Source: a bacterium OM1 bin76 (GTDB lineage: Bacteria > Actinomycetota > Acidimicrobiia > Spongiisociales > ZC4RG35). Taken from it: a stretch of DNA of 64,000 nucleotides. The stretch lies in contig MPNA01000007.1 in the NCBI GenBank assembly GCA_002238785.1, positions 15,583 through 79,582 on the forward strand. Direction: 5' to 3'. The position numbers and the translations under genes were made by a program. The notes under the pieces were generated by a model. The model saw nothing but the letters and a program-made list of their open reading frames with translations. It did no database searches and was not told the DNA's origin. Positions 1 through 56,062 of this stretch are shown here, in pieces; the stretch's first letter is position 1; every line of letters begins with the position of its first letter.

Positions 1-99
1 AACGCTATCTCCGCCGCGGCGTTGATGTGATAACGATGGCATCTGTCGTTGATCCCGTCAACCACTTTCCCGCCCACCGGCGCGAGCAACTACTCAGCG

Positions 100-425
100 A
101 AGCCGTGAGGCTATGACTGCAGCCCCGTCAGATGCCCTCCATGTGGGGGACATATTGCGTTGGTGCGACATTGTGCTAACGGATCAGGGATAGGAAGAAG
201 TCGCTACCTTGCAGATGACCTTGACTCTTTGTTGGTCAGACTGGCAATGGAGCGGTGTCTACAGAACATCGGGGAAATACTCATCGCCTCAGCCCCTCCT
301 TATTGGATCGCAACAAGGACATCCCGAGCGCACAGATAGTCGGTTTGAGAAATGTGTTGGCGCATAAATACGGAGACATTGATCACAGCATTCTCTGGTA
401 CATAGGCTATAGAAGATGTGCCTGA
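100..425 (+). pseudogene. HepT/DUF86-family toxin (HEPN nuclease of a HepT-MntA pair), disrupted by at least two frameshifts or in-frame stops
   Basis: Three reading frames together give ...RYLADDLDSLLVRLAMERCLQNIGEILIA... then QIVGLRNVLAHKYGDIDHSILW, containing the DUF86 Rx4HxY motif (RNVLAHKY). No single intact ORF exists. The preceding 1-100 nt could be the 3' end of a cognate nucleotidyltransferase gene. Confidence 0.55.
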
Positions 426-597
426 GTTGGCACGGGCGTTGCGGGCACCCAAATAGCGTCCCCCTATGGTTTTTTGGTGCTTCGGAAATGAGCGGGGAGT
501 CGTGAATCCATCGAATGTGAGGGAGGGTCCTCCATTATCGGGTGTTGAAGCTATTCGCATCCGAGAGGGGGACCCTGTGGAGACTGATGGTAGGCGT

Positions 598-1300
598 ATG
601 TGCGAGTTGTTGGTTGGCCTGGGTGAGGTGGATCTGGTGGGTGTCGAGGAGTTGGCGGGTGACCGGTTGAGAGTGACGATCAGGTCTCGTGGATCTCGTC
701 CGGTGTGCGGGGAATGTGGTGGGAGGGTGTGGTCCAAGGGCGACCAGCCGGTGCGGTTGGTGGATTTGCCGGCGTTCGGTCGGCCGGTGCGGCCTGGGGT
801 GGCGCATAACGCCGCTGGGTGTGCCCCAGACCGACGTGCGCGGTGGGGTCGTCTTGCGGAACAGGATCTGTCGGTGGCGCCGGAACGGGCCTTGTTGACG
901 TCTCGGGCAGGGCGATGGGCCACCGCTCAGGTGGGTCGGTTTGGTCGCACGGTGTCGGAGGTGGCCGAGGAGTTGGGCTGTAGTTTGGCATACGGTGAAC
1001 CGCGAGATCGTCCGGTGGGGAGACGCGCTGCTGGAAGCTGACATCGATCGGTTTGGACAGGTGGAAGCGGTGGGGGTGGACGAGACCCTGTTCTGGCGTA
1101 AGGGCCGGTGGCGGAAGAAGCAGTGGTGCACCTCGGTGGTGGACGTTGGCGGCCGTCAGTTGTTGGACATAGTGCCTGGTAGAACGGCTGAAAGCGCCGC
1201 TAGTTGGTTCCGGAACCAACCTACCGAATGGTGTGAGGCAATGTCGGTGGGCGGTGTTGGATTTGTCAGGTCCCTACCAGGTGGCCTATGACCCGAGTTT
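598..1300 (+). pseudogene. ISL3-family transposase, N-terminal fragment, frameshifted and truncated
   Basis: ORFs 466..1041 and 941..1291 carry ISL3 hallmarks: Cys-rich N-terminus (PVCGECGG), RLVDLPAFGRPVR, ...VGVDETLFWRKGRWRKKQWCTSVVDV...LLDIVPGR. A third frame continues with VLDLSGPYQVAYDP and then stops. The reading is broken where the next element begins. Confidence 0.7.
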
Positions 1301-1439
1301 GGCGGGTCAGGGGGTTTGGTGGGAGGCGATTGGTGTGTTGACCTGGGGTTTTGTGTTGTGAGGTGCTGTTCCGGCACGATTTTGTAGGGGCGACAGGTTG
1401 TTGGTGTTGTGGGGATCGGGGTGCTATTGTTGTGGGGTA

Positions 1440-2804
1440 TGTTCGCTTGAGACGACCCGGCGTCGAAGGGGCGACAAGGTTTACGAGTACTTGTCGTTGG
1501 TGGAAACGGTTCGCAAGGGGTCGAAGATCGGCCATCGGACCCTGCTGCGCTTGGGAGAGGTCACTGCTTTACGCGAATCGGGACAGTTGGGACGGATCAT
1601 TTCGGCGTTGGAACGTCACCTCCACACCGAACGCGTCGACGTTGACGGAATAATCGCCGAGGGAGCACCCGCGGTGGGAGCGGTAGCCGCCGCGGCTGCG
1701 GTCTGGAAACAGTTGGATCTCGAGGGGGTTTCTTCTCACAGGTGGGCGCGGAACGCCGTGCTGACGTTTTGGAGGATGCGGTGTTCGCGATGGTGGCCAA
1801 CCGGCTGGTAGCCCCGTGTTCGAAACGTCGGTTGCCCGAATGGACAGAACATGACGTGATCATGCCTTCTGGGTGGTCAGCGCCGTCGTTGGACCAGTAC
1901 TACCGTGCCCTGGACGCCGTCGCCGACGTCAAAGAAGAGACCGAGGAGCACCTTTACCGGCGGTTGTGCAACCTGACCAACCTGAACCTTCGGCTGGTGT
2001 GCTATGACCTGACATCCACCTATTTCGAGGGTTCCACCCGACCCTCCGACGCGTTCCCGTCGCGGGTGTTCGGGTATTGGCGGGATCATCGCTCGGACAG
2101 GCCCCAGATCGTGATCGGTCTGTTGTGCACCACAGACGGGATCCCGATAGCCCATCATGTGTTCGCGGGGAACACCAACGACGCCTCCACCCTACCCGAC
2201 GTGTTGGAAGACCTGGCCAAGAGGTTCGCGGTGGGTCGGATCTGTGTGGTTTCCGACCGGGGTCTCATATCAGCATCTAACCTGGAAACGGTCACCCAAG
2301 CGGGGTTTGATCACCTGATGGCCACCAGACTCCACCGCGATCCGATCACCGCCCAAGCACTGGCGGCTGTCGACCAGGACACCGTGTGGGTTGAGATCCC
2401 CGAACACGGTTGCAGAGCCGCGGATGTCACCCTCGAAGACGGGACCCGCACGGTGGTGGTCGAAATGCGACGTTCGTGCCCGTCGGGACACCCAACGCAC
2501 CGCCGAACTGATCGCCGCTGCCGAAACCGGGTTGTTGGCGTTGGAACATCGCGTCCGCTCGGGAAGGCTCAAAGACCCGGCCAAGATCGGGAGAGCCGCG
2601 CAACGCATCCTCGGCACCGGGCGGGTCGGGCGACTGTTCGACCTCGAAATCGGACCAGGCCGGTTTCTCTACCACTACAACGAAGAAGCCCAAGCCTACG
2701 AGAAGCTGTTGGCGGGTCGTTATGTGCTGACCACCAGCCTCACACCCGCACAAGCCGACACTGGAATGAATCCCCCCGGCTTTTGTGGAGGCTTTCTATC
2801 TTGA
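1440..2804 (+). pseudogene. IS1634-like (IS4 superfamily) DDE transposase, split over three frames
   Basis: ORF 1398..1811 has GDKVYEYLSLVETVRKGSKIGHRTLLRLGEV, typical of an IS1634 N-terminus. ORF 1742..2845 has ...LVCYDLTSTYFEG...RDHRSDRPQIVIGLLCTTDGIPIAHHVFAGNTND. ORF 2391..2804 has ...FLYHYNEEAQAYEKLLAGRYVLTTSL, a typical C-terminus. There are two frame changes. Confidence 0.7.
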
Positions 2805-2855
2805 GAGGATGGAGTCTCATGGCCAGTAATAGTTCTGTTAGGTAATGCGACTGAG

Positions 2856-3125
2856 TTGCGTGAGCGTGCTGTGCGGATGGTCCTGGAAGGCGTCCGTGAG
2901 GGGGTGTATTCCTCCGAGTGGGCAGCGATCCGGGCGGTGGCGCAGATGCTGGGACCTACTCCCGAAACGGTTCGTAAGTGGGTTCGTAAGGCCGAATCGA
3001 GGGTCTCAGCGGCAGCGGTGGACCACAAACGTCGGATCGTTGAGTTGGAACGGGAGAACCGGGAGCTGCGGCGAGCGAACGAGATCTTGAAAGCTGCTTC
3101 GGCTTTTTTCGCGCGGGAGCCCTGA
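2856..3125 (+). CDS. IS3-family transposase OrfA (HTH / leucine-zipper)
   Basis: 89-aa MRERAVRMVLEGVREGVYSSEWAAIRAVAQMLGPTPETVRKWVRKAE...RIVELERENRELRRANEILKAASAFFA, a classic IS3 OrfA. Confidence 0.8.
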   Translation: MRERAVRMVLEGVREGVYSSEWAAIRAVAQMLGPTPETVRKWVRKAESRVSAAAVDHKRRIVELERENRELRRANEILKAASAFFAREP

Positions 3126-3143
3126 TCCGCGACCGCCAAGGTA

Positions 3144-4083
3144 GTGGCTTTCATCGATCGTTATCGGACCAGGTTCGGGATGCGGGCCGATCTGTCGGGT
3201 GCCTGGGCGAGCGCAATGTCGGAATGCGCCCCTTCCACCTACTACGCCTTCAAGTCCCGTCCGCCGTCAACAAGAGCCCAGCGCGACGGATGGCTTGTTG
3301 AACAGATCCGCCGCGTGCACCAGGAGAACTATGGGGTGTACGGCGCGGTGAAGGTATGGGCACAGTTGAACCGTGAAGGCACCCGAGTGGCGCGGTGCAC
3401 AGTGGAACGGCTGATGCGAAACACCGGTCCTGCGTGGTGTTTCCCGCGGGCGGCGCAAGGTGTGCACCACCGAACCCTCCGGGACTGACTATCCGGCTGA
3501 TCTGGTGGAACGGGACTTCACCGCCGGGGCGCCAGATCGTCTTTGGGTTGCCGATCTCACGTATATTCGCACGCGGGCTGGGTGGGTGTACGCGGCGTTC
3601 ATCATCGACGTGTACTCCAAGTTCATAGTGGGATGGCAGACCGCTACCACCCTCCGCGCCAGCCTGGCCGTGGACGCGTTGGAAATGGCTTTGGCCACCC
3701 GCCGGCGTCGAAACCCCGAGAAATTGATACATCATTCGGACAGGGGAAGCCAATATCTGTCCGTGCGGTACACCACCCGTTTGGCCGAAAGCCAGATCGT
3801 TTCCTCGGTGGGAAGCCGGGGCGACAGCCTGCGACAACGCCCTGGCCGAGACCACCATCGGTCTTTACAAGACCGAACTGATCAACCAACAGGGACCATG
3901 GCAAAACCTGGACCACACCACCTTCGCCACCCTCGAGTACATCGACTGGTACAACCACCGACGCCTACACGGAGGAATCACCCCCGACAACACCTACATC
4001 CCCCCCGCCGACCACGAAACCGCCTACCATCAAACCACCCCCAGAAAACCCGCAACCACACAAACAACCCACTCTCCATGAAA
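3144..4083 (+). pseudogene. IS3-family transposase OrfB (rve integrase core), internal frameshift near 3830
   Basis: DDE core motifs are present. The reading frame jumps between ORF 3460..4194 and the +1 frame, where the conserved C-terminal segment is encoded. Confidence 0.7.
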
Positions 4084-4174
4084 CCCGGGGAGGTTCAATC
4101 GAAGACAACCTCAATCTCATGCCCCCGACGACTACACAACTGGAACAGCGCCCACGACCTCTACAAATCAACTA

Positions 4175-4207
4175 GGGAGGGCAACCACCGCTAGAGCTTG
4201 CCCTCCC
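4175..4207. repeat. Perfect 10-bp inverted repeat (GGGAGGGCAA / TTGCCCTCCC) with a 13-nt loop at the IS3 right end
   Basis: Read directly from the sequence. No following T-run, so not a canonical intrinsic terminator. Confidence 0.5.
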
Positions 4208-4480
4208 TTACGTTCGATGGATTCCCGACTCCCCTGAGATGTCCGAAGAACCAGTAAACCAAAGGCTCCTATCAGGTCACATCCAGTCCAGGTCGGTGAA
4301 AACCGCCCCTGGCCAAAAGGCAGGCCGACAGATCGCGACAAAGGCACAACAACCAGAAATGTTGAGAGTCAGACGTCCCCTGGCAAGGGGCACCCCTATT
4401 ATAAGTGATATGTTGGGATTTGGTTGCTGGATTGGGCATTAATCTATCGAGGGGTTTTACTTGGGGCGTACTGCAACTCC

Positions 4481-5146
4481 TCACTCGTTTTCGAAAAACG
4501 TTGTTAGGTCGAAGGCATCGTTCAATATGGCGCCAACTATCAAACTCAACAAGGTGATGGCTGCCATACTCCACCATTTACGACGGTCCTCTAATGCGGA
4601 TACTCTCTCGGCAAGCGCAGTGGGATTATAGGTTGGGCCTCTGAGGTTACTGATGTGAGAATCGCTAATATTAACTGCATTCTGTCGCGGACCACAATAT
4701 AGATCCTCAGTTGCCTTGTCGAGAGAAACGTACCACAACTGGAAAGTCCGTTGGTCTTGTGTAAGGCTGATAGATTTGGAGCCTGCATTAAACACGGCGA
4801 AGATCAGTTTGCCTTTGTAGCCAGGATCAACGTGGAAGCCAGAGACATTTATCAATCCTTGCATCTTCTTGCTCGATTTCATTGACAGCAATCCGACGGC
4901 GTTGGCGGGGATTTCTACAACTTCGGAGATCAAGAGTTGAGCGAATTGTCCAGGGGGAATATTGACTCGTTCCTTATCATCTATTTTGACTCTGATCCTG
5001 GTTCCTGCGTTGGAACTATTGGTAACCCATGCTTCGTCTCCCATCGAGAGTTCATATGAACAGTTCTTAATGTGTGACTCATCGTATGGCTCGATCAAGC
5101 TCGGTAGTCTTGTCTTGAGGGTCTCACTACTCCAGAAACCGGACAT
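4481..5146 (-). CDS. dCTP deaminase/dUTPase-fold (Dcd-like) protein with a C-terminal transmembrane anchor; catalytic Glu replaced by Ala
   Basis: 221 aa. IEPYDESHIKNCSYELSMGDEAWV and GFHVDPGYKGKLIFAVFNAG align with Dcd motifs (E. coli: HRIDPGWSGCIVLEFYN), but the LEF glutamate is an alanine. C-terminal WWSMAAITLLSLIVGAILNDAF is a predicted TM helix. Strong AAGGAGA RBS upstream. AT-richer than the flanks. Confidence 0.7.
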   Translation of the reverse strand: MSGFWSSETLKTRLPSLIEPYDESHIKNCSYELSMGDEAWVTNSSNAGTRIRVKIDDKERVNIPPGQFAQLLISEVVEIPANAVGLLSMKSSKKMQGLINVSGFHVDPGYKGKLIFAVFNAGSKSISLTQDQRTFQLWYVSLDKATEDLYCGPRQNAVNISDSHISNLRGPTYNPTALAERVSALEDRRKWWSMAAITLLSLIVGAILNDAFDLTTFFENE

Positions 5147-5294
5147 TCCTATCTCCTTAGCTATTAGGACCTATCGATTCGGAAGGTGGAAAGGCCTTAC
5201 TATCTAACCGCCTGCTACATAGATTAGGATTACTTCGCGGTTTCGCAATTCCTACTTGTGCAATCCGGCTGTCTTGGGCTCCCTCCATGTCGTG

Positions 5295-5333
5295 GGAGGG
5301 GTGTTTTGCGGAGGGGTGTTTTGCGGAGGGGTC
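5295..5333. repeat. Tandem direct repeat, about 2.6 copies of the 15-mer GGAGGGGTGTTTTGC
   Basis: Read directly from the sequence, in the intergenic gap between the TS-like gene (5514) and the Dcd-like gene (5146). Confidence 0.6.
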
Positions 5334-5513
5334 TTGCCTAGTCCATAAGAAGGCACTCGCTGGAGTGCGACGCCGGGGCGGTGAACATAGTGTTAGGGGC
5401 GGTTCGACCGATTGCTCAGGTCTTTCGGGATCTTGGGGGTTCACAGGGCCGCTTTGGAATTGGGTGAGGGATAGCCTAGCTTGAGAAGCCAGCACAACCA
5501 GTTCCATCGCACC

Positions 5514-6569
5514 TCATCTTGCTCGGCCCACTGACCTGTATTGTTGACGTTCGTTCTGCGAGCTTATGCTAACCCTCCTCAACCAACGATGCCATAACTT
5601 TCTATACACAGGATTGGTGCAGGTGGCCATAGCGTGATCATGCATCTCATCCCACCCTAGCCTCCGTGCTATTTCACTGGCCAGCACGGCAAGCATGTTA
5701 CGGAATGCCTCCGGGCCTTCATCCCAACGGACGACTCTTTCCAGTTGTGGGCGCCGTAGGCCAGGCGCGATCAGTCGCTCCATCCTTCGGCCCAACTCTT
5801 TGAATGCCGCTTCTGATTTCTCCTTGGGGAGCGCAAGCGAGTCTGTGTTTCGTAGCCGGTTTGGCGGCGTCTGTGAGGCGAATACATTCTCTTCGTCATG
5901 TTCATACATGTGCAGGCTGTCGCTCAGTTGGTGATAGGGACCACAATCGACGCCAAGCCACCCGGCCACAACCTCTTGAAGACTGGTGAACTGTACGAAG
6001 TTGTGAGGAACCCCTAAGAAGAGATCATTGCTTCGTAGTACCTGAAGCCACTCCAGCTTCCCTTCGCGGACCTTCAACAGTGCGAACACATTGCAAGGGA
6101 CATCCCGACTGGTGGGCAAACCCTCAGGGTCGGGAAGGTCGACGGACGAGTCCCAGATTTGCAGTACAACCTGCCGGGTGTCCGGGTTACTGCTTAGCAC
6201 CTGATAGGCCCGAGTTAGTTGGTCTACCCCCATGTGGTAGCGGAGTCGATGCCCATAGGCCCCATGAAGGTGGGGGCCTTCTCCCACATAGTCGGAGAGT
6301 TTGCTGTTCCACGCCCGGAGGAAAGCAAGATCGTTACGACCTGTCATGATCCAAACGATCTCGGCAATGGCGAAGGCAACATTCATGGGAGGTTGGCGGG
6401 AAACCACCCATCGTTGTCGCGGATCATTGATGGTGATGGCTGCATGGAGGATTTCTTTGGTTGCACCACCTCTACTTGGTTGGAGGAGGACACCATGGCC
6501 TGCCCGGAATGCCTCCACGACTTGCTCCCAGACTTCATCTGCGTCTTGGCCTTCAAACGCCCTAATCAT
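5514..6569 (-). CDS. Thymidylate synthase-family (ThyA / pyrimidine-nucleotide C5 hydroxymethylase-like) protein, paralogue 1, with a ~90-aa C-terminal extension
   Basis: 351 aa, colinear with ThyA: AIAEIVWIMTGRNDL (ELLWFIKGSTN), GVDQLTRAYQVLSSNPDTRQVVLQIWD (DQL..IK.NPDSRRII.SAWN), VPCNVFALLKVREGKLEWLQVLRSNDLFLGVPHNFVQF ([36 protein letters not shown]). Nucleophile Cys retained. Asn equivalent to N177 retained. PCH becomes PCN and RR becomes RQ. Confidence 0.75.
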   Translation of the reverse strand: MIRAFEGQDADEVWEQVVEAFRAGHGVLLQPSRGGATKEILHAAITINDPRQRWVVSRQPPMNVAFAIAEIVWIMTGRNDLAFLRAWNSKLSDYVGEGPHLHGAYGHRLRYHMGVDQLTRAYQVLSSNPDTRQVVLQIWDSSVDLPDPEGLPTSRDVPCNVFALLKVREGKLEWLQVLRSNDLFLGVPHNFVQFTSLQEVVAGWLGVDCGPYHQLSDSLHMYEHDEENVFASQTPPNRLRNTDSLALPKEKSEAAFKELGRRMERLIAPGLRRPQLERVVRWDEGPEAFRNMLAVLASEIARRLGWDEMHDHAMATCTNPVYRKLWHRWLRRVSISSQNERQQYRSVGRAR

Positions 6570-8247
6570 GAGATGTTCCGAGAGGAGGTATCAGGCTGTT
6601 GATGCCCCACTTGGGGGGATACCAATACTCTATTGGCTCTGTTGAGGGGCGATAGATTTGCTTGATACGGGAACGGTTGCCGATGCCTTTGAAATCGGGA
6701 TGCTTAACGCGGGCATACTTTGAGACCTCGCAGAAGAGGTTCTGGCAGTCTATGAGCTGAAGTCTTCTGCCCCAAAGGTCTACAAACCGCAGGCCGAGGC
6801 GGTCGAACTCTTCTTCCTGGCGTTCGGTGACCATTCTTATGAGTTCAGCGTCGGTCAAACCGCCCAGGTCAGTGAAACATTTACGGACGCCGTCTATCGC
6901 CCCGGGGCCAGGAACGACGAACTCCATTTCTGAGAAGTCGATAACTTCGCTGTAGTTCAGGTCGGTCACGAATTGGTAGGCAAGGAAATCGCCGATGGAC
7001 GGGTAGGAGCGCAACAAACCGAAGGCGTCCCGCATCCTGCGTGTCCCTGCGATCCTCTTGGGTAACTCGTCTGCCATCATCCGCTCGATGAGCCGGAGAT
7101 GATTGCGGTGCTTTCGGGAATGTCCGAAGACGCGCCCGGCCGATGGCATAATGTAGGCGGCGGAATAGATTGGTCGACCCTCGGCGAGTGCTTGCGACAG
7201 CACCCCGTTGTAGGCGTCGAACGAGTATGACGAGTACTCAACATCCCCCAAGGCGGCTCTGAGCAGCTCCCAAGTCCCAATCCTGTTGAAAACCTTGAAT
7301 AGCAGGGTACGAAAGAACACTTCTTCTGAGGATTGTGGACCCTGGTAGATGACGTTGCGGATGAGGTACTGGCTTACCCGATCAGAGGCTCGGTATGCGT
7401 TAGTGAACTTGAAGCGGGCCAATATCGGGTCGTCCGTCCAGGGAGGTGAACAGCCTTCGAGTCGGCGAAAGAACACTTCTTGGCGTTTCACCGCGAACCG
7501 CCAATAGGTGTCATAGACAACGGTCGGCTTCGCCGGTGAGAGGCGTGGCATTTTCGGTGGCTGGAGTGTTCTGCCATCAAGGAGTGCTGGTTGGCCACTT
7601 AGCTGAGCCACTGCCGGAGAATCTTGCCGTTCGCTGAATCTGCGTACGGTAGAAATAATCGTCTTCCACGCCATGTCAAGGGCGTGCTCAACAGACGAGT
7701 CGTTGTGTAGCGTGACCACATGGGAGCGGATCTGTTCTCGCTTCGCCAGCGCCCGATACCCGTCCCGCAGGTCATCACCATTGTCTGAATCCGCACTCTC
7801 GCGCTCTACCAGAAACACCATGTCCGGCTTGATTTGCTTCCAGTGGAGTCGCTCCAGTTCGATCATCGCCTCCAACGAGGGCTCTGACACTCCAAATGCA
7901 CCGCCATAGACCCGTGTGGACCACCAGAAGCGGTCCAAGACTATCCAAGAGCCTGTACGGAGGGCAGGCAGGATGTGCTCTTCTACGGCCTCTATATGAG
8001 CCGCAATGTGCAGGATCTGAAGACTTGTCGCGTTGACCTTGCCGAGGCCAAAGCTGGGTGCGTCGTGGTGGAGGTCATAGACCAGACGGCCCAGAGAGCC
8101 TAACTGCCTCCCTGGAAAGGATAGGTTTTCGCAGGGAACGCCCGCCTCGTGGAGGCGGTTTGTGAATAGCTCGGCAAGGGTACTCTTACCGACGCCGTCG
8201 CGCCCCTCGAACACGATGAGCCTGCCCGGGGTTTGCTGCTCTGTCAT
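6562..8247 (-). CDS. Fusion protein: N-terminal dTMP-kinase-family P-loop (d)NMP kinase plus C-terminal ~340-aa domain of unknown function
   Basis: 561 aa. The N-terminus matches Tmk: LIVFEGRDGVGKSTLAELF (FIVIEGLEGAGKTT), LSFPGRQ (TREPGGT), ILHIAAHIEAVEEHILPALRTGSWIVLDRFWWSTRVYGG ([38 protein letters not shown]), PDMVFLVE. The C-terminal part (TVVYDTYWRFAVKRQEVFFRR...ILARFKFTNAYRASDRVSQYL...GIGNRSRIKQIYRPS) matched no family I could name. Its start overlaps the next gene (ATGA). Confidence 0.7.
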   Translation of the reverse strand: MTEQQTPGRLIVFEGRDGVGKSTLAELFTNRLHEAGVPCENLSFPGRQLGSLGRLVYDLHHDAPSFGLGKVNATSLQILHIAAHIEAVEEHILPALRTGSWIVLDRFWWSTRVYGGAFGVSEPSLEAMIELERLHWKQIKPDMVFLVERESADSDNGDDLRDGYRALAKREQIRSHVVTLHNDSSVEHALDMAWKTIISTVRRFSERQDSPAVAQLSGQPALLDGRTLQPPKMPRLSPAKPTVVYDTYWRFAVKRQEVFFRRLEGCSPPWTDDPILARFKFTNAYRASDRVSQYLIRNVIYQGPQSSEEVFFRTLLFKVFNRIGTWELLRAALGDVEYSSYSFDAYNGVLSQALAEGRPIYSAAYIMPSAGRVFGHSRKHRNHLRLIERMMADELPKRIAGTRRMRDAFGLLRSYPSIGDFLAYQFVTDLNYSEVIDFSEMEFVVPGPGAIDGVRKCFTDLGGLTDAELIRMVTERQEEEFDRLGLRFVDLWGRRLQLIDCQNLFCEVSKYARVKHPDFKGIGNRSRIKQIYRPSTEPIEYWYPPKWGINSLIPPLGTSHD

Positions 8248-9059
8248 TTGCCCGCCTTTAACTGTTCCAAGATTCTCTCGACATCCCGTGCCAGTTTCTG
8301 AAGGGATCTCTTTGTGCGATCGCGTTTCGCAGGACTTGCCACGCAGGTCACCTGGGTTAGCTGCCTACCCATCTCCTGGGCCATGAAACGGCCGAGCCGG
8401 CACAAGCCCAGATAGTTACCGTAGGCACGTTCATAGATGTACTGCGTGGCATAGAACCCTGTCACCGTCAACCCGTCTGAGCCTTGCTGCGCAAACGCTA
8501 CCTGTTGAAGGCAGGGAAAGCCTCTCATACGCTGATTGGTGTGGTCCCTGTGTGGGTCAAAGATCGCCGCTTGTAATGCTGACCTGCGATGGTTGCCTCT
8601 GTGCCATGTTTGGATGATGTGTTCCAGTTGGTTGACGCTGTCCCCGTTGGCGGCGTTGCGGCCGTAGGCGATGAGGCGTTGGAAGTAGACGCCGTTCCTG
8701 TTGCTAGCGTCCTTGAGCACACGCGGCATGATTTGTCTGTAACGTCGGTATAGCTGTTGACGATCTGCTTCCGGGTTCCAGAGCGAGACGGGGAAAATGG
8801 TGTTGGCGACCTTGTGACAGGAGAGGGATTTGGCTTCGGCACCCAAGGCATCATCAAGGAGTTCACGTATTGGTGCTACTTCCAGGGGCTCCCCATGGTC
8901 GAACCCGCGAATCACGACTGTTAGAGGCGCAATCTCACTCCTGGCCATCAAGTGGAGGAACGCCCTAGCCCAGGCGACGGAGAGGTTGCCCTCTTCAATC
9001 GTAAGTGATCTACCCATCCCCAGCTTCTTCCCAGTGCCGGTACAGGGCACGCCCCACAT
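8244..9059 (-). CDS. Thymidylate synthase-fold protein, paralogue 2 (divergent; most catalytic residues other than Cys are lost; C-terminally short)
   Basis: 271 aa. VPCTGTGKKLGMGRS (DRTGTGTLSIFGHQ), NQLEHIIQTWHRGNHRRSALQAAIFDP ([26 protein letters not shown]), GFPCLQQVAFAQQGSDGLTVTGFYATQ ([24 protein letters not shown]), NYLGLCRLGRFMAQE (NIASYALLVHMMAQ). Lacks the equivalents of R166, D169 and N177. The 5' end overlaps the ImmA gene. Confidence 0.6.
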   Translation of the reverse strand: MWGVPCTGTGKKLGMGRSLTIEEGNLSVAWARAFLHLMARSEIAPLTVVIRGFDHGEPLEVAPIRELLDDALGAEAKSLSCHKVANTIFPVSLWNPEADRQQLYRRYRQIMPRVLKDASNRNGVYFQRLIAYGRNAANGDSVNQLEHIIQTWHRGNHRRSALQAAIFDPHRDHTNQRMRGFPCLQQVAFAQQGSDGLTVTGFYATQYIYERAYGNYLGLCRLGRFMAQEMGRQLTQVTCVASPAKRDRTKRSLQKLARDVERILEQLKAGK

Positions 9060-9870
9060 ACCCGCGTCGCGAAACGCGGACGAACGTAGACCAAGAATTG
9101 CCGGCTTCCAGCCGGCCGACTCCTGGGCTGGTCGCTATGAAGATAGAGCCCTGCTCAATGTCTGAAAAGGGCTCGAGGCAGACACTCTCTGGCTGCGCTC
9201 CACCTAGGACCAATATGAGGTCACCCACTTCCACATCCACGGCCCTCCCGATCCAGTGGGTATCCAACACCAAGGCGGTCTGTGACGCGTACCACCCGAG
9301 GAGCAGCGATTGAGCTTTACGGGAGCCCACTCTCAACAGCGTCCTAGCCCGCATGCCCGGTAACACTTGGAGCGCGCTTCGCAGATGGTGAACCAGCGTC
9401 GCGTATCCAACGCCAAAGTAGCCGGCAACCATAAAAGCCTGCTCGGGTGTACAGTCCTCCATGCTCCACCCTCGAAGCGCAAATGCCTTGGATACCGCCA
9501 ACTTGGGCATGAGAAGAGCACCCGCAAAGCAATCCGCCATGAACTCCTTGGGATCGAAACGAGGGTTGTCCCATTGCCCAACCAGTTCGTCGATATCCAC
9601 TCCGTCACTCTGGTTGTGGTGACCAAGTTCGTGGGCACAGGTAAACGCCCGGCGGCCGGGTGGGCGTAACGAGGAGACGATAATAGTGGGAGTGGAAACA
9701 GATAGGTACATTCCCTCCATACTGGGAAGGTCCAGAAACCGAACCTCAATGCCAAGTTTCTGAGCGAGATCGTACACAGAGACAGCGTGGTCAAGCCCGT
9801 AGCCAACCGAAAGACGGGTACGGAGGGCCGCCGCCGTTGCCTCTCGGGCTATCAATCGCCGGTTGCTCAT
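9010..9870 (-). CDS. ImmA/IrrE-family (Peptidase_M78/DUF955, CapP-like) zinc metallopeptidase
   Basis: 286 aa with HEXXH at CAHELGHH. Sits immediately downstream of, and overlapping, an XRE HTH gene, the classic XRE/ImmA arrangement. Confidence 0.8.
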   Translation of the reverse strand: MSNRRLIAREATAAALRTRLSVGYGLDHAVSVYDLAQKLGIEVRFLDLPSMEGMYLSVSTPTIIVSSLRPPGRRAFTCAHELGHHNQSDGVDIDELVGQWDNPRFDPKEFMADCFAGALLMPKLAVSKAFALRGWSMEDCTPEQAFMVAGYFGVGYATLVHHLRSALQVLPGMRARTLLRVGSRKAQSLLLGWYASQTALVLDTHWIGRAVDVEVGDLILVLGGAQPESVCLEPFSDIEQGSIFIATSPGVGRLEAGNSWSTFVRVSRRGYVGRALYRHWEEAGDG

Positions 9871-10220
9871 TCGATGTGATTTCTCGGAGCGCGGAGCGCC
9901 TGGACAAGCTGGAGAATGCGGTCAAGGTCCTCTTCTCGCAACTTGCTCAACTCCCTCGCCGCTAGCTTCACGCGATCCGCAGCCAAGCTCGACTCCTCGT
10001 CCCCCTCACCCACGATCCAAGAAATACTGACCCCGTACATCTCAGCCAGCGCAGTGAGTTCCTCGGCAGATACCCTTCTGCGAGCTGCTTCGATCTCGGA
10101 AACCGTAGGACGGTGCCAGTCCAGACTCTTGGCTACCTGACCTTGGGTGAGACCTGCCATCTCTCTCGACAGGCGAAGACGTGATGCGATTGCCTTTCGC
10201 TTCTCTTCGTATTTGGTCAT
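9867..10220 (-). CDS. XRE-family helix-turn-helix transcriptional regulator (CapH/ImmR-like)
   Basis: 117 aa: ...LRLSREMAGLTQGQVAKSLDWHRPTVSEIEAARRRVSAEELTALAEMYGVSISWIV, an HTH_3-type motif. Confidence 0.8.
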   Translation of the reverse strand: MTKYEEKRKAIASRLRLSREMAGLTQGQVAKSLDWHRPTVSEIEAARRRVSAEELTALAEMYGVSISWIVGEGDEESSLAADRVKLAARELSKLREEDLDRILQLVQALRAPRNHIE

Positions 10221-10223
10221 CCT

Positions 10224-10508
10224 TTAGGCCTCAGAGCCGACATAGGAACAAAGGGAGTCCGCTATCTCGCCAACCGACAATGCACGCTTCCCATCCTCAG
10301 AAATGAAGGGGTTGTAGTTGCCGGGAAGCTCCACCTTTAGGGACTCCGAAAGCATGACGGTCGCTTCCACCCCGCTAAGGCTGTCGAAGCCCTCCACCCC
10401 AAACACCGGGCACGTTGACGCATCTATGCCAGCACTTGACCGCCCGCTCACCTCTTGGACCTCGACGATGACTTGAACCACCCTCTTCAGGATCTCTTGC
10501 TTGTTCAT
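10224..10508 (-). CDS. Small carrier-protein-like (ACP/PCP-fold) protein, first gene of the operon
   Basis: 94 aa. LKRVVQVIVEVQEV...FGVEGFDSLSGVEATVMLSESLKVELP resembles the ACP DSL phosphopantetheine-attachment motif and helix pattern. AGGAGG RBS 5-11 nt upstream of the ATG. This assignment is tentative. Confidence 0.4.
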   Translation of the reverse strand: MNKQEILKRVVQVIVEVQEVSGRSSAGIDASTCPVFGVEGFDSLSGVEATVMLSESLKVELPGNYNPFISEDGKRALSVGEIADSLCSYVGSEA

Positions 10509-10526
10509 AAGTACCTCCTTACCGCA

Positions 10527-10543
10527 GGTAAGATTATCTTACC
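10527..10543. promoter_or_regulatory. Perfect palindrome GGTAAGAT-T-ATCTTACC about 19 bp upstream of the operon start codon; candidate XRE operator
   Basis: Read directly from the sequence. 8-bp arms with a 1-nt spacer, just upstream of the RBS of the first gene of the minus-strand operon. Confidence 0.45.
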
Positions 10544-10853
10544 ATAAGAAGCCGAGCGGTCAAAACATAACCCAATATTGCTCACCGACAGACCGGTCCT
10601 AAAGGGACAGCGTTGTTGCCCGTCCCGCATTGCTTTGGTAGGCGGCGTTCGGGCTGGCTACCGTCAGGATGGGCGGTTCGGATGTATGCGGGGCTCCTGA
10701 TATTTGCTTGGAGAGCATCTTGATTGGGAGACAACGAGCTAGGTCCAGATCCGTGTTGGAGAGTGGTGGCAACAGGCCGCTGTAAGGAGTCGGCGATTCT
10801 TTGTCAAGAGTCTCCTGGGGGCGGGTGTAACTGTATCCTGACGGACTGTCATC

Positions 10854-11072
10854 TCATGGGCACGTACCCACAGTAGAAGGAGCCATCACCCGGAACGGCA
10901 ACACCCGACTGGTGGAAACCCGCCCGAAGCTGATCCACACCGTTCCATCCACCAACTGTTCCAACCCCAACCGATCAACCAACGTCCCCGCCGTTAACAA
11001 CCCGGCGTCAGCCACCAAAGACTCATCATCGAAAACCACCCCAAAACGATTCGATACTCTGCAATACTCCAC
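10854..11072 (-). pseudogene. Transposase N-terminal remnant (IS1380/IS4-like)
   Basis: 72 aa: NRFGVVFDDESLVADAGLLTAGTLVDRLGLEQLVD, typical of IS1380/IS4-family transposase N-termini. Nothing follows it. Confidence 0.45.
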
Positions 11073-11431
11073 TCACAGGAAGTGCCTCCCAACTGTGGAC
11101 CAACAGCTTCTTCGCTAACAGCTATTGTCCCAGATCAGAGGCACTCTCCGCCTCTATCCACCCACCCACCAACCACACCCCATCGGTGGATTGAGGCTAA
11201 GAATCCGTCAAATCGCTATTCTGACTTTACGGCCCCGCCGCCCTGTGTCTTCAACTGGACCTAATGTCTTTCTCTGTCGAAGACGAATGCCTGTACTCCA
11301 TCCGAACTGATGTACCCTCTCTCTCAGGTCAAGAGTGGAACAGAGCAGTCGGTCACGGTAAGTTTTGGTACTATAAGTAGTATTAAGGCACTCTACTGTG
11401 GCTGTGACCTGGGATTATGTTGAGATCATAG

Positions 11432-11523
11432 CGGAGGCGGACGGGAATCGAACCCGCCGGGGATCGTTTGACCCCCCACCGGTTTTGAAGACCGGGGAGC
11501 CCACCAGGCGCTCGCTCGCCTCC
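11432..11523 (-). tRNA. selC: tRNA-Sec (selC-like), anticodon UCA, 92 nt, class II
   Basis: Reverse complement: GGAGGCGAGCGAGCGCCTGGTGGGCTCCCCGGTCTTCAAAACCGGTGGGGGGTCAAACGATCCCCGGCGGGTTCGATTCCCGTCCGCCTCCG. Anticodon stem CCGGT/ACCGG with loop CUUCAAA (identical to the E. coli selC loop), a long variable arm, T-loop TTCGATT, and 13 nt (8+5) between T-loop and discriminator. The 8th acceptor pair is an A.C mismatch. CCA is not encoded. Confidence 0.7.
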
Positions 11524-11992: not shown

Positions 11993-12327
11993 GGCGTGGA
12001 CACGCTTCGGTGGGTGTCGTGATGAGGGTTGAGATGACGACGGTGAGGTCCACGATGGCAAGTCTTCGTAACGGGGGAACTGTCCGCCTGTAGGCCTCTT
12101 CAGTCTGCTGAGAGTCGTTCTGTCTGGTTACGCGTCTCGGGGCACTTCTTGGTTGATTTGTAACGGTTGTTCCGGGTGTCGTTGGGAGTTGTTCTGGCTT
12201 TTGCCCTGTACCGAGACGAAAAGTCGACTGAGGGGAGGACTCCAAACATTAAGTTATTAGTGTTTGTTTTCATAACTTAGTGTTGTGTAGAGGTGTTTTG
12301 TCACAGGACCTGTGCATACTGGTGGAT

Positions 12328-13557
12328 ATGAAAACAGAGTCTGCGAACCGGGCGGCCGTGAACAGGGCGCGTCTGCTGAGGCCTACCATGCCGGTGGCCG
12401 AGGCGTCGGTGGAACAGCTTAGACAGCGGATAAGGTCCACGATCCGCGTTCAGAACCAGGCTGCTGCGGACCGTGCCGAAGCGGTAGCGGAACTGGATCG
12501 ACGCCAGGGTACAGAATTGGTGGAAACCGTGCTGCGGGAGGATGGGCTGTTGGGCAGACGGCGGGCCCGGTCGGAGGTGGAAACTGCCAAAGAGTTGGAA
12601 GAGTTGCCCAAGACCCGGGAGGGTTTCCAAAAGGGAGACATCTCTGCGGACAACGCCCGCATCCTGGCCAGTGCTAACCAGCGGGGAACCATCAAAGAGG
12701 ACGAGTTGTTGGATGATGCCCGTTCTCAGTCTCCTGATAAGTTCGCCCGGTCGGTCCGAAAGCACGAACAACGACAGTCCCGTGATGATGGTGTTTCGAG
12801 GTTGGAGCATCAGCGTTCCCACCGGTTCGCGAAGATCACCACCGATGCCGACGATGGGATGACCGTGTTGTATGGGCGGTTCGACCCTGTTACGGGCGCT
12901 CGGATCGAAACGGCGGTGTCGGCGATGATGAACCAGTTGTGGCACAAAGAGGACCCCACCGATCGGGCCACGGCTCCACAGCGGATGGCCGACGCCCTAG
13001 CAAAACTTCTTACTCGTCAAGGGAAGGGCGGGGAGGGTCGTTCTCAGGATGTGCGACTGTTGTTGATCGCCGACTACGACGCGGTCAGCGGACGGTTGGG
13101 CAACCCCCGCTTGGAGAACGGCACCCCGGTTCCGGCGGGGACGTTGCGCCGTTTGGGGTGTGATGCTCAGGTACTGCCTGCTGTCTTCTCGGGTGGTTCG
13201 ATACCGCTGGACCTGGGGCGGGCCCGGCGTACCGCCAGCGGTTCCCAACGCGCTGCTTTGGTTGCCCGCGACAGACACTGTGTGGGTTGCGGCGCCAAAG
13301 CGTCCTGGTGTCAGGCTCACCATATCGTTCATTGGCAGGACGGAGGCCCCACCAGTTTGGAGAACATGTGCCTGCTGTGCAGCCGGTGTCACCACAAGGT
13401 TCATGACCAAGACTGGACCGTGCACCAAACCCCAACCGGGAAGTACACGCTACGTCGGCCGCCGATCACCGACTGGCGACGACCCTCCCGCCAAACCAAC
13501 CACCACCCCCGCCGTCGGCGACGCACCCGCAAACACCCCATCAAACAAAGAAAATGA
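12328..13557 (+). CDS. DUF222 + HNH endonuclease domain protein (REP13E12-like)
   Basis: C-terminal CVGCGAKASWCQAHHIVHWQDGGPTSLENMCLLCSRCHHKVH is an HNH motif. The N-terminal region is DUF222-like, as commonly seen in actinobacteria. Confidence 0.7.
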   Translation: MKTESANRAAVNRARLLRPTMPVAEASVEQLRQRIRSTIRVQNQAAADRAEAVAELDRRQGTELVETVLREDGLLGRRRARSEVETAKELEELPKTREGFQKGDISADNARILASANQRGTIKEDELLDDARSQSPDKFARSVRKHEQRQSRDDGVSRLEHQRSHRFAKITTDADDGMTVLYGRFDPVTGARIETAVSAMMNQLWHKEDPTDRATAPQRMADALAKLLTRQGKGGEGRSQDVRLLLIADYDAVSGRLGNPRLENGTPVPAGTLRRLGCDAQVLPAVFSGGSIPLDLGRARRTASGSQRAALVARDRHCVGCGAKASWCQAHHIVHWQDGGPTSLENMCLLCSRCHHKVHDQDWTVHQTPTGKYTLRRPPITDWRRPSRQTNHHPRRRRRTRKHPIKQRK

Positions 13558-13651
13558 TCCGCACCCACTCCCCAATCGTTCCTCTCAACAGCCGGTTGTG
13601 CCTGGATAGGTCCCTCAGGAAAAGGTCGGCAGTGGCGTATCCTTTGCCACT

Positions 13652-14215
13652 ATGACTCAGCGCACTAGCCGTCGACCCAGTGCCGGGCCCACCTTTGGGG
13701 AGATTCTGGAGAGTTTTCGACGTCGGCGCGGTTTCAAGAGAAGGCAGATCGCCCGGCAGTTGGGAGTTACCCAGGGTCAGGTGAAGGACTGGGAGCGTGG
13801 TGCGGAGATACCCATCCATCCCGGGTTGCTACGCTCGCTGGAGGCCATATTGGAGACACCGGAGGGGATACTGGTTCGGGCCGCCGGTTTCTCGGCGCCG
13901 GTGCCGGATGAGCCGAAGATGACCATTCAGGAATCGCTGGCCTCCCTGGCCAGTCCGGAGGACGAGGCCACTTTGCATCCCATGGATCTCCAGGAGGAAC
14001 TGCTACCTGTTCTCCCGCCAGCCCCGGCCGAGCCGTCTGGAGGACCATCGGGGTTGTTCTCCTACCGTTACAACCCTCCCGAAGAACGATGGGTGTACCG
14101 GATCCGGTTCCTGCTCACCGGTGCGGGACTGGCCCTTTTGGGTCTGCTGCTGATCTGGGCAGCGGGACGAGTTTGGGGGGAGTTGGGCACTCTCTGGGAT
14201 GCCGTCTTCGGTTGA
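13652..14215 (+). CDS. Membrane-anchored XRE-family HTH protein (RodZ/anti-sigma-like topology)
   Basis: N-terminal HTH (FGEILESFRRRRGFKRRQIARQLGVTQGQVKDWERG), a Pro-rich linker, and a C-terminal TM helix LLTGAGLALLGLLLIWAA. Confidence 0.55.
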   Translation: MTQRTSRRPSAGPTFGEILESFRRRRGFKRRQIARQLGVTQGQVKDWERGAEIPIHPGLLRSLEAILETPEGILVRAAGFSAPVPDEPKMTIQESLASLASPEDEATLHPMDLQEELLPVLPPAPAEPSGGPSGLFSYRYNPPEERWVYRIRFLLTGAGLALLGLLLIWAAGRVWGELGTLWDAVFG

Positions 14216-44074: not shown

Positions 44075-44695
44075 ATGGTAAATGTGACCGAGGATGAATT
44101 TGCCGGGAGACAAGATACTGGATTGTTCTCGATCGGTCACTCGAACCACCGTTTCGAGGAATTAGTGCGGTTGCTTGGTGAGCACCGAGTGCAGGCAGTG
44201 GCAGATGTGCGCACTTCGCCTTACTCCAGGTATAACCCGCAATTCAACAGCCGCGATCTTCGCTACGGCTTGGAGGGAACGGGTATTCGGTATGTCTTTT
44301 TGGGGAAGGAACTGGGAGGGCGTCCTGAGGGGGCCAGGTTTTACGACACCGATGGGCACGTTCACTACGGACGGGTGGCGGAGACCCAGTGGTTCCAGAC
44401 CGGGCTGGATCGGCTCTGTGACGGGGCAAGGCGGTTCAGGACAGCCATTCTTTGCAGCGAAGAGGATCCTGCGGAGTGCCATCGCTTTCTCCTTATCACC
44501 CGTGCTCTTGACGACCGAGGCGTGGAGGTCACACACATTCGGGGTGACGGTGCTGTCCAGGGAACGAAGGAGATTTCCGCTTTTGATGCTGAACACAAGG
44601 TAGTTTCTCTCTTTGGAGAGGATGTGAGGAGTTCATGGAGATCTACACGATCGGTTTTACCAAAAGGTCGGCTGAAGACTTCTTCGAATCGCTGA
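44075..44695 (+). CDS. DUF488 (YeaO-like) family protein, copy 1, with a C-terminal extension
   Basis: LFSIGHSNHRFEELVRLLGEHRVQAVADVRTSPYSRYNPQFN...IRYVFLGKELGGR...LCSEEDPAECHRFLL, the DUF488 core. 3' end overlaps copy 2. Confidence 0.65.
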   Translation: MVNVTEDEFAGRQDTGLFSIGHSNHRFEELVRLLGEHRVQAVADVRTSPYSRYNPQFNSRDLRYGLEGTGIRYVFLGKELGGRPEGARFYDTDGHVHYGRVAETQWFQTGLDRLCDGARRFRTAILCSEEDPAECHRFLLITRALDDRGVEVTHIRGDGAVQGTKEISAFDAEHKVVSLFGEDVRSSWRSTRSVLPKGRLKTSSNR

Positions 44696-45072
44696 GCAAC
44701 TGGGGGATCGAACGACTCGTGGATGTACGGGTCAGCAACAACTCCCAGTTGGCAGGTTTCGCCAAGAAACTTGATCTTGCCTATTTGCTGAGGGAACTGG
44801 TTGGAGCAGACTATCACCACGAACCCTTGCTCGCGCCCACAAAGGCACTTCTGAAGGATTACCGCACCAAACAACTCGACTGGGGTCAATACGAGGCGGC
44901 ATTCGTGAATCTCCTGTCAGAGCGCAAGATCGAGGACGAGATCCCAGGAGATCTCTTCTTGCCGCGCACCGTGCTGTTATGTAGCGAACCCACTCCCGCC
45001 TTCTGCCACCGGCGATTGGTGGTGGAATACTTGAATGGGTCTTGGGGAGATGTGCAGGCTGTTGATCTGTAG
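44635..45072 (+). CDS. DUF488 (YeaO-like) family protein, copy 2
   Basis: MEIYTIGFTKRSAEDFFESLSNWGIERLVDVRVSNNSQLAGFAKK...LLCSEPTPAFCHRRLVVEYL, paralogous to copy 1. Confidence 0.65.
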   Translation: MEIYTIGFTKRSAEDFFESLSNWGIERLVDVRVSNNSQLAGFAKKLDLAYLLRELVGADYHHEPLLAPTKALLKDYRTKQLDWGQYEAAFVNLLSERKIEDEIPGDLFLPRTVLLCSEPTPAFCHRRLVVEYLNGSWGDVQAVDL

Positions 45073-55762: not shown

Positions 55763-56062
55763 TTGGATCCCAGCACCCAGCGACGGGATATCGATGAGTT
55801 GCGAAACGCGCTGATGGAAGCGTTCTGGGCCCGTATGCAAGTCGAACTTGTAGACCGAAGACGCTGGCTGACCCGTATCGAACTCGCCAACGCTATCTTC
55901 GAGTACCTTGAAGTCTTCCACAATGGCCAACGCCGCCACACCGCCTTGGATATGCTGACGCCGATCGAATACGAGAGAATCCACTACCACAACAACCCAA
56001 ACCGTCGTAACGCTGATCCAAGTGAGCTGACTCCACAAAACCGGGTCACCATCAACCGATGA
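55763..56062 (+). pseudogene. IS3-family transposase OrfB, C-terminal remnant only
   Basis: ...FWARMQVELVDRRRWLTRIELANAIFEYLEVFHNGQRRHTALDMLTPIEYE is the conserved rve C-terminal tail. No upstream DDE core or orfA. Confidence 0.6.

Follow-up and report, generated by a model that had tools for sequence, protein, structure and literature searches.

The 3' flank of tRNA-Sec as a probable defense-DNA hotspot in an Acidimicrobiia lineage, occupied by a mosaic with a putative nucleotide-modifying operon

The window analyzed in the present study is a 64,000-nt stretch of the genome of bacterium OM1 bin76 (Actinomycetota, Acidimicrobiia; assembly GCA_002238785.1, contig MPNA01000007.1, positions 15,583 to 79,582), and its subject is the region on the 3' side of a tRNA-Sec (selC-type) gene, whose 3' end points toward lower window coordinates. 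This region is foreign and lineage-variable, it is devoid of mobility functions, and it meets conserved DNA ∼140 nt past the tRNA. The tRNA-Sec 3' flank is probably a long-lived hotspot of the lineage, at which defense DNA has repeatedly been gained and replaced, and its occupant in the window a mosaic rather than a single island. The site is regarded as a lineage-wide defense hotspot because 15 related loci keep the tRNA and its 5' neighbor genes while their 3' flanks differ and carry defense genes. An earlier sequence-only reading had proposed one genomic island, old and fixed, inserted at the 3' end of the tRNA. The accessory, compositionally foreign nature of the DNA is upheld, but 'one island' is not: the region is assembled from separately acquired pieces, namely a 5.3-kb cassette, a dCTP-deaminase-like gene of lower guanine-plus-cytosine (GC) content, nested dead insertion sequences (IS), and a toxin-antitoxin remnant that is joined to other DNA in a conspecific contig.

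The tRNA-Sec gene (11431–11523, minus strand, anticodon UCA) forms the fixed edge of the variable region. ARAGORN calls it as tRNA-SeC with anticodon tca, the sole tRNA in the window, and Rfam RF01852 matches 11433–11523 at full length (model positions 1–91; 76.7 bits for a gathering score of 47, E = 5.4e-14). The letters, read directly, give an anticodon loop CUUCAAA, a variable arm of ∼20 nt and a 5-bp T stem with the loop UUCGAUU; the acceptor conforms to the bacterial 8-position frame, with seven pairs and an A.C mismatch at position 8, and CCA is not encoded. This mismatch is invariant among the tRNA-Sec genes of all relatives, and is therefore a feature of a working tRNA-Sec gene rather than a sign of decay. 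In 15 related loci the gene occupies the same position at 95–98% identity, and it appears to be functional, neither a pseudo-tRNA nor an attachment-site (att) remnant. The original call, made from the anticodon loop, the long variable arm and the 8+5 spacing, is confirmed by ARAGORN, RF01852 and the structure, and the tRNA-Sec proved genuine when another isotype or a pseudo-tRNA was considered.

Compositionally, the 3' side of tRNA-Sec stands apart from the rest of the window. The GC content is 55.4% over 4266–10508 and 54.7% over 10509–11290, versus 63.1% over 11524–64000, and the lowest 6.2-kb window outside the region has 59.5%. Per kb, values of 50–59% on the 3' side compare with 60–68% over most of the remainder. 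The AT-richer flank noticed earlier is thus real.

The comparison that carries the hotspot reading is a RecO-anchored scan of species-representative genomes, which returned 15 loci from Acidimicrobiia metagenome-assembled genomes (MAGs). Sponges or corals are the hosts of many of these, and RecO is 77–86% identical across the set. Two of these loci (L011 and L014) are identical, which leaves 14 independent genomes; the two share 100% identity over 7.9 kb under the labels 'bacterium' and 'Caldilineaceae bacterium', and one of them is probably mis-binned. The tRNA-Sec gene lies on the same strand in all 15 loci, ∼2.1 kb upstream of recO in 14 and ∼3.5 kb in L007. Synteny with the window is kept on the 5' side: a molybdopterin-oxidoreductase-domain gene, a helix-turn-helix (HTH) gene, a 2-hydroxyacid dehydrogenase gene and recO. 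The exception on this side is a ∼1.7-kb segment (11994–13673) with an HNH-DUF222 gene (12280–13557, plus strand), which only L007 shares and 14 of the 15 relatives lack; it looks like a separate selfish insertion.

On the 3' side, the flanks of the relatives are mutually non-homologous in most pairwise comparisons, and in 14 of the 15 the GC content falls 3–10 points below that of the 5' flank. By blastn and tBLASTx, no counterpart of the window's cargo genes occurs in any of the 15 flanks, where only IS1634- and IS3-type elements match. The same genes at uniform GC, an outcome that would argue against accessory DNA, were thus not encountered: all 15 loci lack the cargo genes. Instead, these flanks contain other defense genes. 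Type I restriction-modification (R-M) systems, complete or fragmentary, are present in L010, L011, L012, L018 and L020 (complete in L012 and L020, whole flank). A type II R-M pair, an MT-A70 methylase and a BglII endonuclease, is accompanied by AIPR in L016 (4144–7325), SIR2_2 is paired with an SMC-like ATPase in L007 (29–4246), L009 encodes the type I-U Cas proteins GSU0053/GSU0054 (683–3571), and L011 also carries Hypoth_Ymh. The flank of L008 holds an ISL3 transposase. A tyrosine integrase (Phage_integrase) is found in a single relative, L017, ∼1 kb from the tRNA. On the far side of the variable interval, five relatives share a core block of a kbl-like aminotransferase and a nitroreductase, 3.1–6.5 kb from tRNA-Sec; this block was not found in the window's contig.

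The boundary of the variable DNA does not coincide with the end of the tRNA. The segment 11290–11430 (minus strand) is a conserved 3' trailer of tRNA-Sec, homologous by blastn to L008, L011/L014 and L013, and not foreign DNA. Homology 3' of the tRNA ends within a few nucleotides in 11 loci by blastn, and at 11290–11295 in L008, L011/L014 and L013; alignment shows that ∼28 nt of trailer are kept in all species, while sub-clades share 100–160 nt before diverging to different cargo and four species share ∼140 nt. The trailer contains the motif GCTGTGACCTGGG at 11401–11413, and the 13-nt motif GCTCTGACCTGGG recurs 13–18 nt past tRNA-Sec in 11 of the 15 relative loci. The trailer could act in processing or as a terminator, encode a small RNA, or be a site of recombination. 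RNAalifold on four sequences folds it with 39 pairs, just one of which shows a compensatory change. The motif GCTSTGACCTGGG was also considered as an att core; it has one chance-level second match in the window, at 40646, and was not adopted. With up to two mismatches, five extra same-strand copies of the trailer motif occur in the relatives' flanks versus ∼1.3 expected (own estimate), an excess that is suggestive but too weak.

A different kind of junction is seen in the IMG/VR provirus L119 (UViG_3300033168_000020, 9616–10951), in which the start of an integrase gene (phrog_1, 2e-76) and the 3' end of a tRNA-Sec are 88 nt apart; the final ∼32 nt of this tRNA-Sec are identical to those of the gene in the window. 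Phage early genes follow this integrase (ImmA-like, ParB-like, HNH/exonuclease, RecT and methyltransferase). The L119 junction lacks the trailer motif, and the DNA is foreign from the tRNA end onward. It appears that phages can use tRNA-Sec for attachment in bacteria of this kind. However, the window junction does not look like an L119-type integration, because the trailer is kept in the window whereas foreign DNA starts at the tRNA end in L119.

The block beyond this trailer behaves as a mobile cassette. It comprises six co-directional genes over 5.3 kb (5362–10640, minus strand) and shares 90.0% nucleotide identity over 5303 nt with positions 7607–12904 of L116, a metagenomic contig of unrelated context. 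In L116, the first gene of the cassette, which encodes a 94-aa protein, is preceded, 240 nt upstream, by a tyrosine recombinase gene (6590–7498; Phage_integrase 1e-18). This is the cassette side that faces the tRNA in the window, where the position is held by a species-specific, degenerate spacer of ∼650 nt between cassette and trailer (10641–11289). The spacer contains an IS1380-like stub, has no match in any relative or cassette locus, and yields no integrase remnant by tblastx or tblastn. L116 itself is IS-rich (IS110, ISL3 and IS30-like) and lacks a tRNA within 7.6 kb. In L023 the operon core is accompanied by type I R-M and SAVED genes, in L118 by McrBC. Its gene order is repeated in many unrelated genomes, and the cargo block recurs at 60–90% identity in other genomes, in unrelated contexts. 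By these comparisons, the cargo block is mobile.

The cargo operon is intact and counts seven genes when the dCTP-deaminase-like gene is included, in the order 94-aa protein, CapH, CapP, thymidylate-synthase (TS)-fold protein, kinase-HMUDK fusion, TS-like enzyme and dCTP-deaminase-like protein; start and stop codons overlap at four of the five junctions within the cassette. The first gene (10224–10508, minus strand, as are all that follow) encodes the 94-aa protein, which has no family match in Pfam, PADLOC, PHROGs or NCBIfam; a gene for 94–97 aa occupies the same operon position in L022, L023, L026, L116 and L117. The next two genes resemble a regulator pair: a CapH-like XRE-family HTH protein of 117 aa (9867–10220; Pfam HTH_31 6.3e-15, PADLOC capH 6.9e-12) and a CapP/ImmA/IrrE-like M78 metallopeptidase of 286 aa (9010–9870; Pfam Peptidase_M78 1.3e-18, PADLOC capP 4.7e-17). 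The latter has HEXXH within 'CAHELGHH' and aligns to the capP model by its peptidase domain only (residues 18–132).

The enzymes follow. A divergent second TS-fold protein of 257–271 aa, depending on the start chosen, is encoded at 8244–9059; it carries an 'FPC' motif, has no Pfam match, and is recognized by NCBIfam thy_syn_methano below the cut-off (2.5e-11) and by PHROG 5131 (1.3e-6). The gene at 6562–8247 encodes a fusion of a deoxynucleoside monophosphate (dNMP) kinase and a 5-hydroxymethyldeoxyuridine (5-hmdU) DNA kinase domain (Pfam HMUDK_hel 1.4e-111, Thymidylate_kin 2.8e-15). It has at least 8000 homologues, one of which, at 69% identity, is NCBI-named Caldilineaceae, and NCBI names a homologue of this family 'putative DNA base hypermodification protein'. 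The TS-like enzyme proper (351 aa, 5514–6569; Pfam Thymidylat_synt 1.3e-21, PHROG 5131 6.3e-61) has the catalytic-type 'VPCN' and resembles phage dUMP hydroxymethylases. Both TS-fold proteins, encoded at 8244–9059 and 5514–6569, retain Pro-Cys ('FPC' and 'VPC') at the position of the catalytic cysteine. Lastly, a 221-aa protein with the dCTP deaminase/dUTPase fold is encoded at 4481–5146 (Pfam DCD 4.9e-16; NCBIfam dCTP_deam 2e-19, below cut-off). Its gene lies outside the 90%-identical block and, at 46.7%, has the lowest GC content of the region, and for these reasons is a separate add-on to the cassette.

Four kinds of IS remnant (ISL3, IS1634, IS3 and IS1380-like) accompany this cargo. The 5' part of an ISL3-family element (463–1293, plus strand) retains a left inverted repeat (463–527) and N-terminal transposase fragments (NCBIfam ISL3 2.1e-14; Pfam DDE_Tnp_ISL3). 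It is interrupted by an IS1634-family element (1294–2850, plus strand), whose transposase is frameshifted (1398–1811 and 1742–2845; NCBIfam IS1634 8.7e-52) and which is 81% identical at the nucleotide level to a copy in L007, likewise near tRNA-Sec. A dead IS3-family element follows (2856–4194, plus strand), with orfA at 2856–3125 and orfB split into 3144–3488 and 3460–4194 (Pfam HTH_Tnp_1, HTH_21 and rve; NCBIfam IS3 5.4e-38); a repeat scan detected no terminal repeats for it. The ISL3-type terminal inverted repeat at 4201–4265 is 82% complementary to 463–527 and probably derives from another ISL3 copy than 463–1293, as judged from a repeat search and a comparison with the intact ISL3 of L029. 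Thus the ISL3, IS1634-like and IS3 remnants noticed earlier are real, while the stub at 10854–11072 (minus strand) matches the N-terminus of an IS1380-type transposase only weakly (NCBIfam E 1.5e-3). That all IS remnants lie in the accessory region does not hold, as a further IS3-type fragment is located outside it. This rve_2 fragment (55763–56062), after the ATP synthase epsilon gene, is 81% identical to positions 4526–4763 of the tRNA-Sec flank of L019.

Distal to these elements lies the toxin-antitoxin remnant, which was correctly recognized from the letters: the HepT toxin gene is frameshifted (160–425, plus strand; open reading frames (ORFs) 160–339 and 255–425), and the MNT antitoxin gene (Polbeta/NTP_transf_2 in Pfam), whose 3' end occupies 1–116 (plus strand) and whose start lies 216 nt before the window, is intact. 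Pfam recognizes HepT-like in 255–425 (2.9e-9; profile positions 71–105 only), and an exact-protein look-up with the HepT fragment returned the same NCBI contig only. A conspecific contig from another sample (L029, JGI24794J26673_10009442) is 96% identical to the window through 1293, where it continues with an uninterrupted ISL3 transposase; it carries the genes for a periplasmic binding protein (SBP), MNT and the truncated HepT followed by the uninterrupted ISL3, and lacks the IS1634 insertion. Because of this continuity, the IS1634 insertion is recent or strain-specific. After a right-end ISL3 repeat that is itself different, L029 runs into different DNA; IS-mediated events therefore probably brought the distal segment and the cassette together.

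The left flank could be followed in contig MKWU01000180.1 (GCA_001753035.1), in which a window position equals the record position minus 985. This record runs 985 nt left of the window and then ends, 12.4 kb from the tRNA, with the intact MNT gene and a partial SBP_bac_3 (periplasmic-binding-protein) gene at the contig end. The extension of the island beyond the window start, as claimed earlier, is therefore traceable for just 985 nt. The MAGs GCA_001753035.1 and GCA_026713945.1 both break off within the IS cluster. When metagenomes were scanned with the SBP_bac_3 fragment, a single conspecific contig, L029, was recovered, which completes the gene and stops short of a distal core flank; the next-best contigs (62–76% identity) have nothing in common with the tRNA-Sec neighborhood.

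The function of the cargo is best approached through its relatives. CapP is a peptidase activated by single-stranded DNA (ssDNA) that cleaves the CapH repressor, thereby inducing adjacent immune operons (bioRxiv 10.1101/2022.04.27.489752; PMC13228613). As in these systems, the window places a small XRE HTH protein beside an M78 metallopeptidase, with a defense operon adjoining and PADLOC matches to both capH and capP. Unlike in CBASS (antiphage signaling based on cyclic oligonucleotides), where the pair usually lies upstream on the opposite strand (Lau et al. 2022), the genes are co-directional with the effector genes and overlap them, and the likeness to the capP model is confined to the peptidase domain. 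The effector part recalls DS-4 ('NTTI'), a five-gene Escherichia coli system from the DefensePredictor study that protects against phage by an unknown mechanism (PMC13092281; gene list from its supplement). By BLASTP, the TS-like protein is 26% identical to its DS-4 counterpart (E 5e-18) and the HMUDK_hel protein 29% (E 5e-35), and both operons combine a TS-like gene, a P-loop nucleotide kinase and HMUDK_hel. However, DS-4 has separate kinase and helical proteins together with TIR and Nmad2 genes, whereas in the window operon the kinase and helical parts are fused, and a second TS-fold protein, a dCTP-deaminase-like gene and CapH/CapP-like regulators are present as well. As it is without the TIR and Nmad2 genes, the operon appears to be a relative of DS-4 and not a member.

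The same enzymes are also known from phages, in whose thymidine-hypermodification pathways 5-HMUDK co-occurs with dUMP hydroxymethylase (PMC5889632). The window enzymes match the front end of these pathways (PMC5889632, PMC8989533), but the operon is chromosomal and without phage genes, lacks the downstream aGPT-Pplase, pyridoxal-phosphate (PLP) and radical-SAM enzymes, and is placed under a repressor/peptidase switch. The cargo may thus work as a DS-4-type, nucleotide-modifying anti-phage system induced by DNA damage or ssDNA, with CapP cleaving CapH. One version of this idea is more specific. Upon damage or infection, the dCTP-deaminase-like and TS-like enzymes, followed by the kinase, would make 5-hydroxymethyl-dUMP-type nucleotides; 5-hydroxymethyluracil (hmU) in DNA would then be phosphorylated, and the replicating phage DNA poisoned or marked. 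That the operon is such a CapH/CapP-switched hypermodification weapon and, at the same time, that the trailer 17–140 nt past tRNA-Sec is a docking site for small recombinase-borne defense cassettes in sponge-symbiont Acidimicrobiia is, as a joint proposal, doubtful.

As to how the mosaic arose, a scenario that is offered tentatively, at somewhat less than even confidence, is that a small element with a tyrosine recombinase brought the cassette in beside the tRNA-Sec trailer. IS insertion and deletion would later have destroyed the integrase and the att site, where the IS1380-like stub now sits, and IS-mediated rearrangement would have joined the distal pieces. Several observations weigh against the account as a whole. 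No integrase or recombinase domain was found by Pfam or NCBIfam in the ORFs scanned in the region, and tblastn with the L116 and L017 integrases gave a best E of 1.5, in line with the earlier remark that no integrase survives next to the tRNA. The 3' 21-mer of the tRNA has no second copy in the window at up to three mismatches. A blastn-short search with 60 nt of tRNA plus 40 nt of trailer detected no further copy of the tRNA 3' end, either within the record's 12.4 kb or in the 4–8 kb flank of any of the 15 relatives, the only above-chance matches being 17 nt (94% identity) in L007, 300 nt away, and 14 nt in L010; a direct repeat of the trailer is likewise missing. With neither an integrase nor a repeat of tRNA end or trailer, the integration step is inferred. 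No distal boundary was seen up to the contig end, 12.4 kb from tRNA-Sec, where the SBP_bac_3 gene has a core-like GC content at third codon positions (GC3 = 0.73) and is near tRNA-Sec in none of the 15 relatives' flanks. No conspecific empty site was seen, as all contigs with the neighboring Oxidored_molyb protein have the cassette. With regard to the cargo, its function is deduced from homology at 26–29% identity, and no operon protein matches TIR or Nmad2 in Pfam or PADLOC.

The foremost alternative dispenses with a site-specific recombinase: homologous recombination in the conserved flanks after DNA uptake, together with IS transposition and IS-IS recombination, would turn over the content, the cassette being a passenger. 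It is a credible account, although one held with appreciably less than even confidence. The want of att repeats and integrase in the window fits it, as do the finding of an integrase in the flank of just one of 14 independent relatives, the sub-clades that have an identical junction 100–160 nt from the tRNA with different cargo beyond, and the recurrence of ISL3, IS3 and IS1634 relatives in several flanks; published defense hotspots are often without mobile-element hallmarks (PMC10121019, PMC10250203). On the other hand, the closest copy of the cassette, in L116, abuts a tyrosine recombinase on the tRNA-facing side, and the distal aminotransferase-nitroreductase flank of the five relatives does not appear in the window's contig. 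The island of the sequence-only reading, inserted by a tyrosine integrase into the tRNA-Sec 3' end, old, its integrase lost and its attR beyond the contig end, is distinctly less plausible. Low GC and IS-rich DNA on the 3' side of tRNA-Sec, its absence from the relatives, and the integrase genes of L119 and L017, 88 nt and ∼1 kb from tRNA-Sec, would all be expected of it. Yet insertion at the 3' end in the classical sense is not borne out: homology continues 28–140 nt past the tRNA and includes the trailer motif that the L119 junction lacks, and of the attL repeat and tyrosine integrase sought upstream of the window, neither was found in the 12.4 kb available, nor any tRNA-end repeat in the relatives' flanks. 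Moreover, the pieces differ in GC content and origin, the toxin-antitoxin/ISL3 segment being joined to different DNA in L029. 'Old' fits the mobility genes but not the cargo, which is intact and, at 90% nucleotide identity to a copy elsewhere, not ancient. All assemblies with the locus essentially represent one near-clonal population (99.994% identity over 18 kb), so that 'fixed' cannot be judged at the species level.

Two further readings deny an acquired defense region altogether and are much weaker. A degraded prophage, in which the TS, kinase and dCTP-deaminase genes would be remains of phage thymidine hypermodification and the HTH/ImmA pair a phage repressor pair, is very improbable. PHROGs does match all enzymes and the HTH/metalloprotease pair, and phage clusters do couple 5-HMUDK with dUMP hydroxymethylase (PMC5889632), but the PHROGs matches of the operon concern only nucleotide metabolism and regulators, apart from a weak secondary match to a terminase small subunit (4.8e-12) in the HMUDK_hel region. 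Structural, packaging, lysis or integrase genes were not found, the genes scanned include no aGPT-Pplase/glycosylase-fold, PLP or radical-SAM partner, and many bacterial chromosomes have this compact operon on its own, next to R-M, McrBC and SAVED genes; the prophage reading was rejected for its lack of phage structural genes. Hardly credible is the view that the region is ancestral DNA at a rearrangement breakpoint, locally low in GC for functional reasons. The core-like GC3 of the distal SBP_bac_3 gene and a left boundary not seen within the contig would suit it, but counterparts of the cargo genes are missing from 15 of 15 relatives' flanks, the cargo block is found at 60–90% identity in unrelated contexts of other genomes (including the NCBI-named Caldilineaceae homologue), the GC content is below that of every other 6.2-kb window of the 64 kb, and four kinds of IS remnant are present.

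Elsewhere in the window, a low-GC patch (55%, 44075–45072) contains a neighboring pair of DUF488 genes, one of which belongs to the DUF488-N3a subclade, just upstream of an ftsY/SRP54-type gene (46100–47191); it may be another small accessory insert.

As a genomic island, the region is ordinary: it adds a new example of a tRNA-adjacent defense island or hotspot, with a cargo already partly described elsewhere. Its interest lies in the site, a lineage-wide accessory-DNA hotspot edged by tRNA-Sec in an uncultured symbiont group and a useful place to seek new defense systems, and in an intact, widespread operon in which a regulator pair of the DNA-damage type is joined to enzymes that are otherwise familiar from DNA hypermodification in phages. 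The site also offers a natural comparison for the selC islands of Enterobacteriaceae and the selC region of Actinomarina. The enterobacterial selC islands, such as LEE and SHI-2, encode a P4-type integrase adjacent to selC and have repeats of the tRNA 3' terminus at their borders. They share with the window foreign, lower-GC, IS-rich DNA 3' of tRNA-Sec, with a content that varies between related genomes. Unlike them, the window has no integrase or repeats found, its junction lies 28–140 nt past the tRNA, its cargo is of the defense rather than the virulence type, and its host belongs to a sponge- and coral-associated Acidimicrobiia MAG lineage.

The defense hotspots of the E. coli pan-genome (PMC10121019) and the Pseudomonas aeruginosa core genome (PMC10250203) are similar in having a fixed position, conserved flanking genes and different defense systems in different genomes, and often lack mobile-element hallmarks. 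By comparison, the window's hotspot spans species (RecO 77–86% identical) rather than strains, is anchored by tRNA-Sec, and has one flank defined here. Within the same class, Acidimicrobiia, selC of Actinomarina is tied to a hypervariable, singleton-rich, tRNA-bounded region (bioRxiv 10.64898/2026.04.03.716425). However, selC lies inside that region in 32 of 84 Actinomarina genomes and elsewhere in the rest, whereas it is a fixed edge in all 15 relatives of the window.

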